A stretch of 64,000 nucleotides of DNA from an uncultured delta proteobacterium (lineage in GTDB: Bacteria > Desulfobacterota > Syntrophorhabdia > Syntrophorhabdales > WCHB1-27), in NCBI GenBank assembly GCA_963810935.1, contig CAWEPK010000017.1, positions 64,001-128,000 on the forward strand. Direction: 5' to 3'. The position numbers are program-made. Below are positions 24,001-30,000 of the stretch, one piece after another. Position 1 is the first letter of the stretch. Every line of letters begins with the position of its first letter.

Positions 24001-27000
24001 CCAGCCCGGCCGAGTGGGACAAGCAAGCCTTCATGAACCAGTTGGCGTCCGCGAAGGTGGTGAAGTTCAGCGGCACGGTGCTGAGCCATGACGTAGCGTG
24101 CCACTGCATAGTGGTAAATACGCCCAGGGGCGAGATTACCCTTCAGGACGACTACGCCAAGTTCATGCAGGAATACGACAAGGCGAAGGGTCTCAAGATA
24201 GGGTCCAACGTAGTGGGCACCTTTAAGACGGTGAACCACATCCACTACGCCACGACCGTCGCCTACGCGCCGAAGAAGGAGATGTAGCAGACGCGCGCTG
24301 GCGGTTTGCGATTGAGGGAAGGGGGCGCAATTCCCCCTTTCTCAACTTTTGGGGTTCAGCACCCCCTCGCTGGGCAAAGCCCGGCGAGCCTCCCCGCTCG
24401 GCGCGGCGCATTCGCTTGCTTTATGACCGCCGGACCGCGGCGGCCATTATTGGGGTTCAGCACCCCCTCGCTGGGCAAAGCCCGGCGAGCCTCCCCGCTC
24501 GGCGCGGCGCATTCGCTTGCTTTATGACCGCCGGACCGCGGCGGCCATTATTGGGGTTCAGCACCCCCTCGCCGCGACCCTTCCCTCCTTACGTCGGGCG
24601 GGTGCCCCGGCTCGGCGAGCCTCCCCGCTCGGCGCGGCGCATTCGCTTGCTTTAATACCCTGCTGCTTGCAGCAGGGTATTAATTCGGAAAGACATAGAA
24701 GGGTTAAGGCTCCTGCGACGAGGGATGCCGCGCGCTTATGCGTCTTGTCTGGCCCAGGCCCGCCTCGGTATGTAACCCTGTGCCGCAGTAGAAAGCGAAA
24801 TCGATAAGGGCGTTCAAGAGGCCGATCTCCCTCTCTGTGCGCCCTTTTTCGATCTCCAACGTCACCCAGCCCTGCGCTCCCGCACCGTATGGGGTGGCCG
24901 CACAGGAGACCCTGAAGTCGGAAACGCGCACCAGGGCCGCCGCGTCTGAGGCAGGCGCCGGGAGATCGACTTCCGAAAACTTGCTCCATACCTGCCCGTA
25001 GCGCTCGAAAACCGCCGGGATGACGGGAAAGGGCAGGCGGGCGCCCATAACCTGGACGATCACCGGGGTTGCGTACTGGACGGTGATTACCCTGCGCGAC
25101 CTGTCGGCGTCGGTGAGGATCTCGCTATAGGAAGCCCGCTTTACCTCCCGGTCGGCTGAAGACGCAAGGACCAGGCTCTTTTTTCCCGCCATATCCGCAA
25201 GTAGGGGCATCAGCACGCCCGGCGCAAGCTCGGTCGCCCGGAAGCGGACGCTGCCTGCGGCCTGCCTCTGGGCGAAGGAAAGGGTGTACGGTTTTATCTC
25301 CCGGTCTTCGAACCTTTCCCTGAGAAGGGCGGCGAGGCCGGTGAAGTGTTCGTCACTCGTGTATGCTATGGCGGAAAGGGGCATTCTGGATGATACCGGC
25401 GACTTTTTCCCTGATTGCGCGCATTTTTTCAGGCGGGTAAGGACTAACGCTCTCGTATTTCTCGTTGAGCGTCTCCCTGGGGACAAAATCCTGCAGGAAG
25501 AACCTGCGGGCGGGCCCGATCTCAACGGCAGCCTGCAAGGCGTCCTGCTCCCTGTGAAGGAAGGGCACCAGCGTCATGCGGAACTCGTAGTCTACACGCC
25601 CCTCGACGATGAAATCGATGCTCTGTCTGATCTTCGCCTTGTCTACACTGCACCCGCACCACCTGTCGTATGATGCGATGGGCCCCTTGATATCCATGGC
25701 GATATAATCGACCAGGCCCGCGCCGACGAGCGATTTTACCACGTCCGGCCGCGACCCGTTCGTGTCGAGCTTTACCTGCACCCCGCGCCCTTTAAGCATT
25801 TCGAGCACATTCGGCAGGCCCTTGTGCATTGTCGGCTCTCCGCCGGTGACGACGACCCGGTCGATCCATTTGTGGAATTTTTGCAGCCTGCCGACGATAT
25901 GCTCGAAGGGCACGTCCTGCAGCGATTCGGGGCGCAGCACCAGTTCCCTGTTATGGCAGAAAGGGCACCTGAAATTGCACCCGCCCGAAAATAGAACAGA
26001 GGCAAGGTGCGACTTCCAGTCGATAAAGCTCGTCTCGATGAAGCCCTTTACCGGGAAATCAGGCAGAGTGCACGGCAATGAGTACTTCTTCAACCTTGGG
26101 GACATCGCCCCTCCATTCTCCCAAGCCGTTTTCCAGCGCATCCTCCACCACTACGGTGGGCAGGGACATAACGCTGTAAAAGCTTGCCTCCGCAAGACCG
26201 TCCGCAGTCCCCACGTTGTAGGTAAGCACGTTGACTTTTTCTTCCAGCAACCGGCTGCCCAACTCTTTAGCCATAGGGCACTTAGGACAGTCGTCCTTAT
26301 AAAAAATCTTTACCACTCCCATGTTTCCCTCACTCGGGGTTTTTCCACCTGAGGCCAGTTGATGTGCCATATGTAAATTGTACTATTACGAACCTTGCCG
26401 TTGCTGACCACCCGCCGTTGCAGCAATTGGCCCCCGGCCCAATTGCTGCCGTGGTCGGAAGAGCGCCTGGAGAAATCGTGATAGGCGGATGCAATGTGAA
26501 GTGCGTCGGCCGGAGGCGTACGCATGTACGTCGGAGGGCACGCGCTGAACAGGGCGCCGCATAGCGCGATTCCTTCAGGCGCGAGTCCAAACCTTGCCAC
26601 AACATCCGCCTTTGTCTCTAACACTCCCACCGGGCGCATTTATGGTTACTATACCGCTTCTTTCTTCTCTTCATTCACCGAGAAGAACTCCCTATTGCGG
26701 TAGCGGTCGCGCAGCTCGCCCAGCTTGCCCTTGTTCCAGCTCGAGACTTTCGTAAAATAACCGGTGATCCTGGTGATGCCGTCGATATCACTCGAGTGGC
26801 AGTGGGGGCACGCATCCGCCAGCCCGCGTGACGTCCGGCTGCAGGAGTTGCAGATGGTGAACTCCGGCGAAAACGCGATCTGGTCGTTCAGGGTGTACCT
26901 GAAGGTCTTCGTGACGAAGTCCGCTATGGCGCCCTTCGACGGCATAGACTCGCCCATCCACACGTGAGAAATCGAGCCCGCCTCGATCAAAGGATGAAAG

Positions 27001-30000
27001 AGGCCCTCGCTCGTCACCCTTTCGATAGGGTTCATCGGTACAGAGACGTTCAGGTGCGTCGAGTTCGTATAGTAGACCTCGCCGCTCGACACGTCGCCCT
27101 TTACAACCTTGCCCGAAACCGGCGAGAAGTAATGGAGGTCGAGCTTCGCAAACCGGTAGCTGGTGCTTTCCGCAGGGGTCTGCTCCAGGACCAGCCTCAT
27201 CTTGTCCCGCTCTCTGACCCTGTCTGCCTGGAGCTTCAGGTGGGCCATGATCTTCAGGCCCATCTTAAGCGCATTCTTCGACTGGTGCATCTCCTCGCCC
27301 GTGTGTACCTGGACCATCTCGTTGAGGCCCACCATGCCGACAAGGTGCGATGCCCGGTTCATCCTCAGATACGGCATGCCGTCGCGGTTCATCGTCAGAA
27401 GCGACAGCGGGCCGTCCTCTCCGGCGGAAAGGAGCTTCTCTATGAAATTCCGCTTCTCTTTGTGCGCCTTCACGGCCAGCATGAACTGGTCCGTGATGAG
27501 CCCTAGGAGCGTAGTGTCGTCCCCCTTCGCCTTGTAGGCAAGGCGCGGCAGGTTGAGGGAAACGTTCTGGAGTGCGCAATAGCGCATGCGCCACGGCTCT
27601 TTTGCGTCCAAAAGGTCGAACTCGTCCAGCTTGAAGCTCAGGCGGCAGCACTCCGATATTTTGGCCGTCTCTCCCCTGTCGAAGACGAAGTACGTATTCC
27701 CCTTGTCCGACGCGACGTCCGATATGTGGTCCAGGAAGTCCTTGTGCCCTTCCGTCTTGAAGAATTTCTCGGTGATATGGACAAGCGGCTTCGGGAAGAA
27801 AAACGGGCGCCCGGCGCCGTCGCCTTCCTTGAAGACCTCGAAGAGCTTCCAGACGAACCGCTGCGCCTCTTTCTCGTATTGACCGTACGTCTTACCGGTA
27901 AAGGCCCCCGAAGGCCCGATAGCGGGGACGTCCACGAAATGCTTCGGAATCTCCCAATACAGGTTGACGTCGGTGAAGATCGCCTGCCCTCCCCTCGCCA
28001 CCGCCTGCTGTGAAAACTCGAAGATCAGCATCTGGGCAAGCTGCTTCACGTCGTTGTCGCTCATCCCTTCGAGGTACGGCGCAAAGAAGATGTTGATGGC
28101 GTCCCAGCCGATGGCCCCGGCGAAATTGCTCTGGAGGGCGGCCGCAAACTTGACCAGGTGGGCCAGCAGCACCTCGGGGTGCTTGGCCGGCTTCGCCATG
28201 GAGAGCGAATGCGGGAGGTTGAGGCCGAACTTCTTTATATATTCGAGGGACTGGCCGCTGCAATACGGCCTGTCGATAAACCCTAAGTCATGGAGGTGGA
28301 TATCGCCGTTCATATGCGCGTCGGCCACGTCCTGGGAAAAGACGGACAACAGGGCGAACTCCTTCTTTATCCTCTCCGCAAGGGTAAGGTTCGTCGCCTC
28401 CGGCCCGTGCGGCACGTTCGCGTTCTCTTTATTCTGGTGAAGGATCAGGTTGCTTACGTCATAGATAGGCATGCCGAGCCTGGTATGCATCCTCCGGGGC
28501 GATTCCAGCCCCTTCTCGATCAGCCGGGCATTGACCATCTCCCTGATGAGCGGCGCAGTCACGACCTTTATACCCGACTTCATGATCAGCTCTTCAACCC
28601 CTTTGCTGATCGATATTGCCGTATCCTGGTCGATCATCGTCTCCCGCATGAGAGCGTCCACTATCCGCGAGCGGTCCCAGTCCGAGATGGTTTCTTCCGA
28701 CGTGCGGACAAAAAGATTCAGATCGGTTGTCTCCATGATCCTCCTTATAATTTTCAGCTTACTATGAATAACGGCAAATAACTGGAATGACTATATATTG
28801 TGATGAGGGATGTATTTAGTACTATATGTTGTGCCATCACCGCTATGATATCATTCTTCGGTGAGTCTTTGTCAAGAATTTTCTAAAGTTTTTTTAAATC
28901 TTTTTAAAAACTGCGCAACGGAAAGCAAAAGATGGAGGTTTTGGATGGAATTTTCATCAAGGTCACCGGCTCGACCTCTTCCGTCATACCGGCGGAAGCC
29001 GGTATCCAGCGGAGAAGGTCCCGGCCCCTATCCTTCGCCCTTCATTATGGCCGCCGCCTCTTCCGGCACTACGGGGACCGTATAAAACTCGTCTTCCCGC
29101 TTGTACTGTGAGTATGTCCTCGGGAGTATCTCGACATGCCAGTGGAAATAGTCGTCCACCTGCGGGCCCCGCTCGCCGAACCGGCCGGCGGCCGTGTTCG
29201 GGGACGTATGGATCACCACGGAATAGGCATCCCTGACCTTTTCGACGCGCCTCATGACGTTGAGGTAGACCTCGGCGAACTCCCGCCTCAGGTCTTCCCT
29301 TTCCCACGATTCGAAGGCGGGGCTGTGCTGTCTGGGGATGATCCACACTTCGAAGGCCATGCGCGAAGCGAAGGGGCAGATGGCTAAAAAATGGCTGCTC
29401 GCTACCACCACGCGCCTGTCCTGTCTCTCCTCCTGACTGACCACGTCGCACAGGAGGCACCTTTCCTTCTGCAGGTAATGGTTCCTTGAATTCTCCAGCT
29501 CCATGAACAACTGATGGGGGACGATCGGCGTCGCAAGCACGTGCGAATGGGGGTGCACGATGTAAGAGCCCGTTATCTCCCCGTGGTTCTTGTAAACATG
29601 GACGTACTTGAAACGTTTGTCTTTTTTCAGGTCGAGGATGCGCTCGGTGTACATCTCGACGACGCGGAACAGCTCGCCTGCATCGAACGTCGCAAAGGTC
29701 TTTACGTGGGGCCTGCCCTCGACGATGATCTCGTGGGCGCCGAGGGTCCCCATCTTGTCATAGAACCCTTCGGCCCTTTTATTTTCGCTCGCTTCTATTT
29801 GAAAGACGGGGTTTGCGGCGGGAAAAGCGCGAACGAGCCAGGCGCCCTGCCCGTCCCTTATCTCCCTGATGGACGGAGGGGTCAGGTGCTCGTTGCCGGG
29901 GCAGAACGGGCAAACGTCGATCTCCTGCGCTTTGACTTTCCTAACGCCGACTACGACCCAGTTGCCCGTCAGAGCGTCCCTTCTAAACTCGCCCACAGAT

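Follow-up and report, generated by a model that had tools for sequence, protein, structure and literature searches.

The window analysed here, the whole stretch of 64,000 nucleotides from an uncultured delta proteobacterium, contains a Cas6 relative that is fixed in the operon of an anaerobic, class III ribonucleotide reductase (nrd). The evidence supports a distinct clade of cas6-like proteins that is found in one family only, where the gene has a fixed place at the end of this operon and overlaps its neighbour. Since the gene sits in the nrd operon away from CRISPR and its product is missing the cutting residue, a CRISPR protein appears, judging by sequence, to have taken on a housekeeping job in these uncultured anaerobes. 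The locus comprises the following features:

24349..24683, no strand assigned: REP-like modular repeat array between convergent genes (TRF and reading of the sequence)
24704..25384, minus strand: cas6-like gene, 226 aa, ATG start, last in the operon (PF10040, AlphaFold2 model, Foldseek)
25353..25384, minus strand: nrdG 3' end and cas6-like 5' end, overlapping by 32 nt in two reading frames (read in the loci)
25353..26141, minus strand: nrdG, class III ribonucleotide reductase radical-SAM activase (Radical_SAM, 3.4e-19; NrdG2 TIGR02495, 172 bits, cut-off 131)
26059..26370, minus strand: thioredoxin/NrdH-like redoxin (Thioredoxin_3 PF13192, 2e-7)
26649..28736, minus strand: nrdD, anaerobic ribonucleoside-triphosphate reductase with ATP-cone, 695 aa (NRDD PF13597, 1.5e-141; TIGR02487, 413 bits, cut-off 326)
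28790..28833, minus strand: pair of NrdR-box-like motifs (CACAATATATAGT, CACAACATATAGT) at a distance of 31 nt (motif match)
28870..28875, minus strand: TTGACA, a hexamer resembling a -35 element and lying upstream of the NrdR boxes (read directly; kept in 18/18 loci)

The gene order nrdD, thioredoxin-like, nrdG, cas6-like was found in 17/17 loci fetched from relatives. There, the overlap of nrdG with the cas6-like gene measures 32 nt in 13 loci and 29 nt in three, with the end of nrdG disrupted in the remaining one; the four-gene operon with a 32-nt overlap, as described in the initial annotation, is thus borne out, the overlap being kept in 16/17. In genome G075, nrdG likewise runs into the cas6-like gene, and in G085 both genes are located at contig ends. 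The start of nrdG is uncertain (an alternative ATG at 26105 yields 250 aa), and that of the redoxin is likely the ATG at 26322 ('MGVVKIF'), with the relatives' alignments beginning at query residue 14-17. Upstream of nrdD, two NrdR-box matches were observed versus 0.07 expected; such motifs are present at this place in 18/18 loci read, and the genome encodes NrdR (196.7 bits, above the cut-off). A consensus promoter scan around TTGACA called no full promoter. Class III operons with a redoxin have the same nrdD, small thioredoxin-like gene and nrdG, together with NrdR-box motifs, and a class III NrdD using a thioredoxin-type reductant was reportedly described by Wei et al. in 2014-2015. The literature searched yielded no description of an nrd operon with a Cas6-like fourth gene.

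The cas6-like protein is a genuine member of the Cas6 superfamily, belonging to its PF10040 branch. CRISPR_Cas6 (PF10040) was matched at 7.5e-9 with 36.6 bits (Pfam cut-off 25), and an AlphaFold2 model built with 36 homologues as input reached a pLDDT of 83.5 and a pTM of 0.81. With this model, 40/40 Foldseek matches in the PDB at E <= 0.001 were Cas6, Cse3 or Cascade chains, with T. thermophilus Cas6 (4c98; 8.8e-12, TM 0.72) on top. The Cas6 fold with its glycine-rich loop, proposed earlier on a model of the same fold (pLDDT 87.7, pTM 0.84), was therefore recovered. Cas6A (TTHA0078; 4c8y, 4c8z, 4c97) and Cas6B (TTHB231; 4c98, 4c9d) of T. thermophilus are likewise built on a tandem RRM fold (Foldseek 8.8e-12 to 1.7e-10, TM 0.68-0.74; profile match 4.7e-8), and have the strands 'KP(F/Y)T' and 'RxR' as well as the GxG....GxG loop at the C-terminus in common with the nrd-linked protein. 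At 226 aa, the nrd-linked protein is shortened relative to Cas6 (about 240-264 aa in T. thermophilus); unlike T. thermophilus Cas6, most members of its family are acidic (median pI 6.4; pI < 7 in 50/66), and the gene resides in the nrd operon, not beside cas genes or arrays. The Cas6 relatives of the family have a median pI of 8.9 (pI > 8 in 77/111).

Among CRISPR-linked proteins, the closest relatives (30-34% identity) are Cas6 proteins of type III-A and type I systems with PF19308 and PF10040 (for example loci L108, Chloroflexota; L111, Dehalococcoidia; L118, Bipolaricaulaceae), whose genes are flanked by Cas10/Csm or Cas3 genes on one side and Cas1 on the other. They have the C-terminal Pfam family and an N-terminal 'MPxS' strand in common with the nrd-linked protein, whereas they retain an 'LH' histidine, a 'GxxxH' helix and the loop G-A-K-T-T-M-G, and possess about 65 N-terminal-domain residues that it is missing; PF19308 gives no match to it (Pfam).

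Across 68 full-length members of the nrd-linked family, F198, G201, G203, G209, G211, Q212 and T213 of the glycine-rich loop are invariant. To this extent the loop motif is as strict as was first claimed; F196 is kept in 67/68, and C200, with 55/68, is not invariant. R47 and R49 are found in 68/68 each, R214 and R215 in 61/68 each, and the 'RxR' strand lines up with 'RLRLT' of TtCas6B in the profile alignment; in total, 31 columns are invariant across 36 sequences. The loop is remodelled to H-T-D-E and reads G-T-G-L-H-T-D-E-G, with a nearly invariant H205 (60/68) and D or E at positions 207 and 208 (62/68 each). Profile alignments place two known histidines, the catalytic His42 of TtCas6B and that of the 'LH' motif in S. 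thermophilus Cas6, at position 26, which is E, A or G in the family and His in 0/68. Position 39 (H in 36/68, Q in 28/68), formerly suspected to hold the catalytic histidine, was rejected on this basis, and the designation as an endoribonuclease is consequently unproven. T. thermophilus Cas6A and Cas6B were described by Niewoehner et al. (2014; PMC3902920). Measured against these two, the nrd-linked protein has no His at the position matching His37/His42; R129 and R130 of TtCas6A, which contact the RNA, correspond to positions 111 and 112 (E/S/D and V/L), and the loop Lys226 to H205, followed by D-E.

Profile searches of this genome (93.47% complete, 7.06% contamination) gave no match for Cas1, Cas2, Cas5d or RAMPs and no second match for PF10040, the Cas7, Cas8, Cas9, Cas12 and Cas13 families lying outside the search. 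The sole Cas3_HD match over the cut-off is an HDOD signalling protein, not Cas3. A scan for spaced repeats flagged 12 places; the sequences of the eight best supported were read and proved to be REP-like tandems or coding repeats, none of them a CRISPR array, and the other four rest on one to three k-mers with three copies. Within these protein families and eight places, the genome is free of CRISPR-Cas, as initially reported. Cas1 was detected in 10/22 genomes of the family and RAMPs in 3/22; in genus g4 (genomes 73-98% complete), the cas6-like gene is present in 6/6, Cas1 in 0/6, and RAMPs gave no match. Genomes G076 and G080 have separate CRISPR-linked Cas6 genes that are remote from the nrd-linked protein (hhalign probability 0.4). 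An array is nearby in 0/14 loci of the nrd-linked clade versus 16/43 outgroup loci. The cas6-like gene is independent of CRISPR-Cas, and the non-CRISPR role assigned to it at first is therefore well founded.

The cas6-like gene was found in 19/21 other genomes of its family and in 0/74 of three sister families, which extends the restriction seen in a smaller sample (16/18 and 0/22). It tracks nrdG: 20/20 family genomes with an nrdG match carry it, and in the two without it the nrdG match is also missing. The three-gene operon of nrdD, redoxin and nrdG is present across the whole order, including the sister families, where it ends at nrdG in 13/13 loci read. The family contains 71 further clusters at 40-73% identity (73 by the earlier count); past an identity gap, the next relatives are Cas6 proteins with PF19308 at <= 35%. 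In a quick tree, as yet unfinished, on which clade placement and node supports are based, the nrd-linked proteins come out as monophyletic, with an SH-aLRT of 100 and a long stem of 1.36. The data show a departure from CRISPR-Cas, with the gene appended at the base of the family to the older operon and its start inside the end of nrdG, and vertical inheritance under purifying selection thereafter (dN/dS 0.08-0.27 in 7/7 pairs). The gene is retained in five genera, and its product evolves faster than its neighbours (44-58% identity versus 85-89% for NrdD). The copies in G087 and G082 are broken by frameshifts; in G082, nrdD is frameshifted as well, which points to an assembly error.

Tentatively, we favour a non-CRISPR hairpin-RNA binder with a post-transcriptional role on nrd transcripts over an accessory of NrdG. 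With the invariant glycine-rich loop, R47/R49 and R214/R215, the Cas6 scaffold would still bind a hairpin RNA. Having lost the catalytic His and a portion of the N-terminal domain, it would not act as a canonical crRNA endonuclease; with the loop in its present form, cleavage, if any, would call for an active site of an unusual kind, for which H205 is a candidate. Because the protein is made only with nrdG, its role would most likely be post-transcriptional: it may bind or process hairpin-bearing transcripts, the polycistronic nrd mRNA being our first guess, possibly at the nrdD-redoxin spacer, where hairpins, REP copies among them, occur in many loci. The outcome, likewise a guess, would be a tuned reductase-to-activase ratio. 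Against an RNA binder, the TtCas6A contact residues are not kept and the family is mostly acidic; no hairpin or sequence common to the non-coding parts of all 18 operons was found, and the spacer is merely 29-40 nt long in 5/18. Moreover, the NrdR-box motifs would already provide transcriptional control, and the sister families manage without the gene.

A rival that we hold to be somewhat less likely is an accessory of radical-SAM activation, in which the Cas6 scaffold would dock onto NrdG or NrdD, or would bind a ligand such as an adenosyl compound or a nucleotide (SAM, 5'-deoxyadenosine or an NTP) via the H-T-D-E loop, and would be made in step with NrdG by the overlapping frames. It is consistent with the exact co-occurrence with nrdG and the conserved 29-32-nt overlap, with a protein that has shifted towards the acidic and lost its catalytic His along with the Arg pair for the major groove and the Lys of the loop, and with the long stem and fast early evolution of the clade. 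The nearest relatives in the quick tree also have an (H/Y)-T-D loop, and in 13/15 loci a subgroup of them lies directly 3' of a PNP_UDP_1 gene resembling MTA/SAH nucleosidase or HpnG, a linkage that holds while the neighbour drifts to 37% identity. Enzymes of the MTA/SAH-nucleosidase type clear adenosyl by-products of radical-SAM chemistry. However, the node uniting the clade with these relatives has a support of 85, the nucleosidase-like neighbour stays under every NCBIfam cut-off, part of the 15 loci are duplicates, and the other subgroup lies next to TIGR04076 instead. A search for a fused NrdG-Cas6 form found none, which weighs little. Also against this rival, the protein has kept its glycine-rich loop intact together with RxR and RR motifs, features that classically bind RNA backbone.

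We regard as improbable the active endoribonuclease of the initial annotation, which would process REP-like hairpin repeats. The array at 24349..24683 consists of a 12-bp hairpin (24652-24683) and about three units of about 101 nt (TRF: period 101, 2.2 copies, 100% match), and is not counted as part of the Cas6-like system. The core of the repeat, GGGGYGCUGARCCCC followed by AAUAAU, has a stem of 5 bp, a loop of 5 nt and a tail rich in A/U, and so resembles Cas6 substrates in shape; copies lie 3' of the gene in G000 and G086 and in the nrdD-redoxin spacer of 5/17 relatives (G086, G087, G077, G078, G080), and H205 would be at hand. The repeat is mostly confined to the family (15/21 genomes versus 3/74 elsewhere), yet plain common descent could explain the shared range. 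With 85 core motifs in this genome, a spread over about 60 loci and IS110-type elements inserted at a fixed site within it, the repeat behaves as an ordinary REP; the six g4 genomes, all with the gene, have 0-1 core each, whereas G050 has 15 copies without the gene and G084 (87% complete) 36 copies without a match. The repeats are thus not borne out as RNA targets.

Very improbable is a gene without function, a cas6 remnant in decay that is carried along and read through from nrdG: its fast evolution and the two frameshifted copies would suit this reading, but the selection signal largely refutes it, and the invariant columns, the retention in five genera and the probable assembly error in G082 add to this. 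Scarcely credible is an ordinary Cas6 acting in trans on an array absent from the incomplete assembly, as type III systems often employ a Cas6 encoded elsewhere (PMC12669027), given the lack of an array and of Cas1, Cas2, Cas5d or RAMP matches here, the lack of Cas1 and RAMP matches in genus g4, the fixed nrd position, the absent catalytic His and the lack of arrays near the clade's loci.

Lone Cas6 homologues in non-CRISPR settings exist beyond the nrd-linked clade. A stand-alone clade (L109, L112, L114, L117; Clostridia, Aminicenantes, Eubacteriales) and the P0087-type group have the Cas6 fold or PF10040 in housekeeping neighbourhoods without cas genes, and the P0087-type group is likewise missing the canonical His and has the (H/Y)-T-D loop in common with the nrd-linked family. 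Linkage to nrdDG was seen in none of them; in the quick tree they branch off as clades of their own, and their neighbours are glycosidases, prfA-prmC, panC, the MTA-nucleosidase-like gene and TIGR04076.

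The cas6-like gene is the last of four co-directional open reading frames, all on the minus strand of the window. Their window coordinates, and those of the motifs 5' of nrdD, are as follows.

28790-28833, 5' of nrdD: two NrdR-box-like motifs
26649-28736, minus strand: nrdD, 695 aa; NRDD (Pfam) at 1.5e-141, TIGR02487 above cut-off
26059-26370, minus strand: thioredoxin-like gene (redoxin); Thioredoxin_3 at 2e-7
25353-26141, minus strand: nrdG; Radical_SAM at 3.4e-19, TIGR02495 (NrdG2) above cut-off
24704-25384, minus strand: cas6-like ORF, 226 aa; PF10040 (CRISPR_Cas6) at 7.5e-9

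The locus has the features of a class III ribonucleotide reductase (RNR) operon under NrdR: both NrdD and NrdG exceed their equivalog cut-offs, tandem NrdR boxes lie 5' of nrdD, and an NrdR gene is present elsewhere in this genome (G000). The motifs resemble the NrdR-box consensus; with a motif derived from the loci themselves, two matches were found against 0.07 expected. A TTGACA hexamer is conserved upstream of nrdD, despite which a consensus promoter scan of this region called no promoter. The neighbouring genes are unrelated. Upstream come a GalT-like gene and a catalase-peroxidase, and a glycogen-phosphorylase-like gene and a 166-aa ORF are convergent with the operon. The 166-aa ORF (23787-24287) has no Pfam match, and the glycogen-phosphorylase-like gene (DUF3417 and Phosphorylase; 21217-23758) is broken by a frameshift or assembly error into the overlapping ORFs 21217-23115 and 22955-23758. 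Within the operon, and equally in relatives, nrdG overlaps the 3' end of the redoxin gene (26059-26141 here) by about 20-90 nt. Three of 16 relatives (L026, L030, L037) have no ATG, GTG or TTG 5' of the conserved NrdG N-terminus, which suggests either that the start is non-canonical or that a frameshift leads over from the redoxin frame. An Rfam search of 23500-30500 returned two sub-threshold chance matches only (anti-hemB, 24.4 bits; P11, 19.9 bits), and neither RNA structure nor a strong Shine-Dalgarno motif was evident by eye around the nrdG/cas6-like overlap.

The cas6-like protein is a real Cas6 homologue. PF10040 was matched with 36.6 bits against a gathering score of 25, and an AlphaFold2 model built on 36 homologues (pLDDT 83.5, pTM 0.81) predicts the tandem ferredoxin-like/RRM domains of the Cas6 fold. 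All 40 Foldseek matches in the PDB at E <= 0.001 were Cas6, Cse3 or Cascade chains, led by Cas6B and Cas6A of T. thermophilus (8.8e-12 to 1.7e-10, TM 0.68-0.74), which bears out the fold assigned by the initial annotation. The family profile recovered the same PDB chains by sequence (4c97 and 4c8y at about 5e-8), and the Atlas search returned PF10040 Cas6 clusters alone. The C-terminal glycine-rich loop named in that annotation is present (GhGxxxxxGhG), with G201, G203, G209, G211, Q212 and T213 invariant in 68/68 full-length members; its inner residues are altered, the Lys being replaced by His in 60/68 and followed by D/E-E. Several features of Cas6 proper are lacking, namely the equivalog score (TIGR01877, 22.8 bits against a cut-off of 58.65), the N-terminal domain (no match to PF19308, the full N-terminal Cas6 domain found in the nearest relatives), the catalytic His and the association with CRISPR.

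The nrd-linked cas6-like proteins form a distinct, vertically inherited clade under selection. A word-indexed search yielded 71 further clusters at 40-73% identity, followed by a gap to Cas6 proteins bearing PF19308; an exhaustive profile search placed 10 representatives at E <= 1e-30, beyond which Cas6 proteins of 260-290 aa follow without a break, and 1288 proteins in total scored E <= 0.001. A quick maximum-likelihood tree was built on 74 rows, of which 21 were drawn from the 68 clade members, the remainder being relatives with known (9) or unknown (44) context. In it, the 21 nrd-linked rows formed one clade with SH-aLRT 100 and a stem of 1.36 changes per site. The restriction to the family proposed earlier held on the wider sample: the gene was found in 19 of the 21 other family genomes (5/6 genera), against 0/74 genomes of the three sister families. 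NrdG was detected in 90/96 genomes of the order, and no nrdG match was obtained in the two family genomes without the cas6-like gene, whose completeness is 87% and 84%. All 13 sister-family loci read carry nrdD, redoxin and nrdG with variable content downstream; the operon of three genes is therefore the older state, to which the cas6-like gene was appended. Ranked by identity to the query, the genera fall in one order whether the cas6-like protein or NrdG is compared, as expected for co-inheritance of the two genes. In 7/7 pairs, dN/dS was 0.08-0.27 for the cas6-like gene, with 0.06-0.19 for nrdG and 0.03-0.11 for nrdD in the same pairs.

The order nrdD, redoxin, nrdG, cas6-like had been reported for relatives and was recovered in 17/17 loci fetched from the 19. 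The cas6-like ATG lies 32 nt inside nrdG, likewise as annotated; in the 17 relatives the overlap is 32 nt in 13, 29 nt in 3, and lost in 1, in which the nrdG end is disrupted. The same nrdG/cas6-like junction is present on a short contig of genome G075, and in G085 the pair is split between two contig ends. The cas6-like gene is broken into two frames in G087 (C2:432949-433618) and in G082 (C38:15555-16207); nrdD of G082 is frameshifted as well, and an assembly error is therefore likely for the split genes. A 320-aa homologue (P0072) was considered as an NrdG-Cas6 fusion and rejected as a frameshifted gene call that joins a piece of nrdG to a Cas6-like frame; a search for fused or longer forms found none at E <= 0.001, which is weak evidence.

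The gene is not tied to CRISPR-Cas. In agreement with the initial annotation, searches of this genome (93.47% complete, 7.06% contamination) for Cas1, Cas2, Cas5d and RAMPs gave no match, PF10040 matched the cas6-like gene alone, and the genome's sole Cas3_HD match above cut-off is an HDOD protein, not Cas3. A spaced-repeat scan flagged 12 places, of which the 8 best supported were read and are REP-like tandems or coding repeats, not arrays; the other 4 rest on 1-3 k-mers. Across the family, Cas1 occurs in 10/22 genomes and RAMPs in 3/22; in one genus (g4; completeness 73-98%) the cas6-like gene is present in 6/6 genomes, with Cas1 and RAMPs in 0/6 each. Arrays were found near 16/43 outgroup loci and near 0/14 clade loci from named MAGs, the one place flagged there being the REP tandem; association with a CRISPR array or cas genes, a membership feature of Cas6, is missing from the cas6-like gene. 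Genomes G076 and G080 contain additional, CRISPR-linked PF10040 genes; that of G080 was rejected as a close source of the cas6-like gene (hhalign probability 0.4).

The catalytic His (His37 of TtCas6A, His42 of TtCas6B; alpha1-beta2 loop) was mapped onto the family by sequence profile, not by superposition. In the profile alignment, the His of 'KLHEAPRKPFT' in TtCas6B (chain residue 46, equated with His42 through a 4-residue construct offset that was inferred from the loop residues named in the paper) pairs with family position 26, on which the 'LH' of S. thermophilus Cas6 also falls. None of 68 members has His at position 26, where E (26 members), A (15) and G (14) occur, and the His at position 39 ('SFAHK'), put forward earlier as possibly catalytic, is accordingly a different site: it lies C-terminal to the PYT strand and is H in 36/68 and Q in 28/68. 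Aligned CRISPR-linked relatives keep the motifs '...LH(x)6-7KPFT' and 'GxxxH', and relative to them the nrd-linked clade has three deletions of about 21, 26 and 18 residues. The RNA contacts of TtCas6A (section 16 of PMC3902920) were transferred through the alignment of the family profile to the PDB chains: Arg129/Arg130 correspond to positions 111/112 (E/S/D and V/L; local pLDDT about 54), Lys226 to H205 (H in 60/68) and Ser228 to position 207, which is D/E in 62/68, as is position 208. The median pI of the family is 6.4 (below 7 in 50/66), that of Cas6 relatives 8.9 (above 8 in 77/111). Conserved residues are K31, P32, Y33, T34, S36, R47, R49, T51, E52, R214 and R215. As judged from sequence, cleavage has likely been lost, with H205 as a candidate replacement catalytic residue; the loss is likely rather than demonstrated because active Cas6 sites are plastic and some active enzymes lack the catalytic His, as stressed in the Cas6 literature (PMC3902920).

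Nine of the nearest outgroup loci were examined for context. Three are clearly CRISPR-linked (L108 and L111, type III-A; L118, type I), L115 has a RAMP neighbour, and five (L109, L112, L114, L117, L121) stand alone among housekeeping genes. Four of these five (L109, L112, L114 and L117, from Clostridia, Aminicenantes and Eubacteriales MAGs) carry PF10040 and form their own separate clade in the quick tree; their settings are downstream of panC or of prfA-prmC, amid a pair of glycosidases, or with a LarA-like gene on one side and DUF72 on the other. Closest to the nrd-linked clade in that tree (joining node support 85) are proteins of the P0087 type, which were followed up in metagenome contigs. 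Among 38 loci of at least 6 kb, 19 were cas- or array-linked, 2 of the nrd type and 17 neither, the last including all 13 closest to P0087. One subgroup of the closest relatives lies 3' of a small TIGR04076-family gene in 8/9 loci, two of them partial, and faces DUF488 and an RlmD-like methyltransferase. In the second, the Cas6 homologue follows directly 3' of a PNP_UDP_1 gene in 13/15 loci, several of the 15 being duplicates and the remaining 2 contigs too short; the PNP_UDP_1 product resembles HpnG and MTA/SAH nucleosidases, below all cut-offs. The pair of PNP_UDP_1 gene and His-less Cas6 homologue lies at L164:4209-5834, at L171:4227-5834 and at 11 further metagenome loci. The closest P0087 relatives lack the 'LH' histidine and have a G-x-(H/Y)-T-D loop in common.

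The evidence shows a Cas6 scaffold that has been exapted: the cas6-like protein is under selection, is made solely together with nrdG and does not depend on CRISPR. For its inferred molecular activity we tentatively prefer, as a possible rather than a probable reading, a hairpin-RNA binder whose nuclease chemistry is lost or atypical; such a protein would act on the operon's own transcript or other hairpin-bearing RNAs. A somewhat doubtful alternative is that it serves radical-SAM activation as an accessory which binds a protein or a ligand; the strict coupling to nrdG, the acidic shift of the family, the remodelled H-T-D-E loop and the nucleosidase-linked relatives point to this. An unlikely wider form would have His-less Cas6 derivatives with an (H/Y)-T-D loop domesticated for adenosyl-radical metabolism, not for RNA, with an adenosyl by-product or the activase as ligand: here as a co-translated accessory of NrdG, the radical-SAM activase of the anaerobic RNR, and in the related lineage as partner of an MTA/5'-deoxyadenosine-nucleosidase-like enzyme. 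If true, it would be the first case of a core metabolic role for a RAMP-fold protein.

Hairpin repeats were named as candidate RNA targets in the initial annotation. REP-like arrays lie at the following positions.

Window 24349-24683, no strand assigned: 12-bp hairpin directly 3' of the cas6-like stop codon, then about 3 units of about 101 nt
Window 61274-61523: similar array
G000 C16:187480-187880 and C9:254850-255120: further arrays

A unit consists of a conserved AAAGCAAGCG...GAGCGGGGAGG segment, a covarying hairpin, the hairpin GGGGYGCTGARCCCC followed by its AATAAT tail, and a further variable hairpin. With 85 core motifs at about 60 dispersed intergenic loci, tandem units of 66-101 nt and hairpin arms that covary between copies, the family in G000 has the copy number and layout of REP/BIME-type repeats. 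Copies of the core motif abound in genera g1, g2, g3 and g5 and are nearly absent elsewhere in the order. All 6 genomes of g4 retain the cas6-like gene with 0-1 copy of the motif, and the sister-family genome G050 has 15 copies without the gene, a distribution that speaks against the repeats as the protein's RNA targets; a nuclease that processes REP hairpins, as first proposed, is very unlikely. REP copies lie inside the nrdD-redoxin spacer in 5/17 relatives, and other spacers have unrelated hairpins, some terminator-like, or measure just 29-40 nt. Hairpins of REP type commonly set expression within an operon, a role with which the spacer hairpins are consistent; they are not singled out as targets of the protein. 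A passenger gene is scarcely credible beside the low dN/dS, and a Cas6 serving a hidden CRISPR array can practically be dismissed beside the array-free clade loci.

What is new is the coupling to nrd together with the remodelled loop; lone Cas6 genes were already known. Literature searches found no Cas6 linked to nrdG, the anaerobic RNR or Syntrophorhabdales (co-mentions of Cas6 and an nrd term were left unassessed), and searches on orphan, stand-alone or exapted Cas6 found no description of an nrd-linked Cas6 or of housekeeping Cas6 clades. Two reviews, in the parts available, list other exaptations, none of them of an nrd-linked Cas6. Cas6 and other RAMP proteins are regarded as CRISPR-only parts, and the current classification pipeline scores matches outside CRISPR islands as false positives (methods of PMC12669027). 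Here, a whole bacterial family of uncultured organisms, with MAGs from peat or bog habitats, retains a Cas6 derivative in a core nucleotide-metabolism operon, and further stand-alone copies with fixed neighbours occur in related lineages. If such proteins have cellular jobs, the turn of a defence protein to housekeeping could be tested cleanly on them; they could also expose a factor in anaerobic ribonucleotide reduction that has escaped notice, or a natural device for RNA processing within an operon.

Several mobile elements accompany the REP-like repeats. The Y1_Tnp matches in G000 are two broken copies and five near-identical IS200-like copies with a Y1 transposase and their own hairpin ends (C5:31473, C7:238548, C3:16772, C8:732035, C12:368507), with no clear RAYT among them; in two of the five, the insertion point directly follows the AATAAT tail of a REP hairpin. 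An element of about 1.2 kb interrupts the REP unit at three loci (C8:755950-757350, C10:159200-160600, C18:9480-10900), always at the point between ...GCCGAGC and GGGGAGG..., and encodes a 318-aa protein that by eye is IS110-type transposase-like; REP-targeted insertion is known for IS110/IS1111 elements. Among sequencing runs, four DNA runs of one study contain 68-80% of the sampled words and may represent the sample of origin. In the sole RNA-library run (X6), used as contigs only, no near-identical contig covers the coding part of the operon, which is uninformative on expression. Metatranscriptome contigs of X6 match window 24200-24408 (0 differences, word depth 71) and 24480-24639 (1 difference, depth 64), stretches that comprise the last part of the convergent 166-aa ORF together with the REP array; this gives only a hint that the array is transcribed, because the repeat is multi-copy and DNA carry-over is possible.
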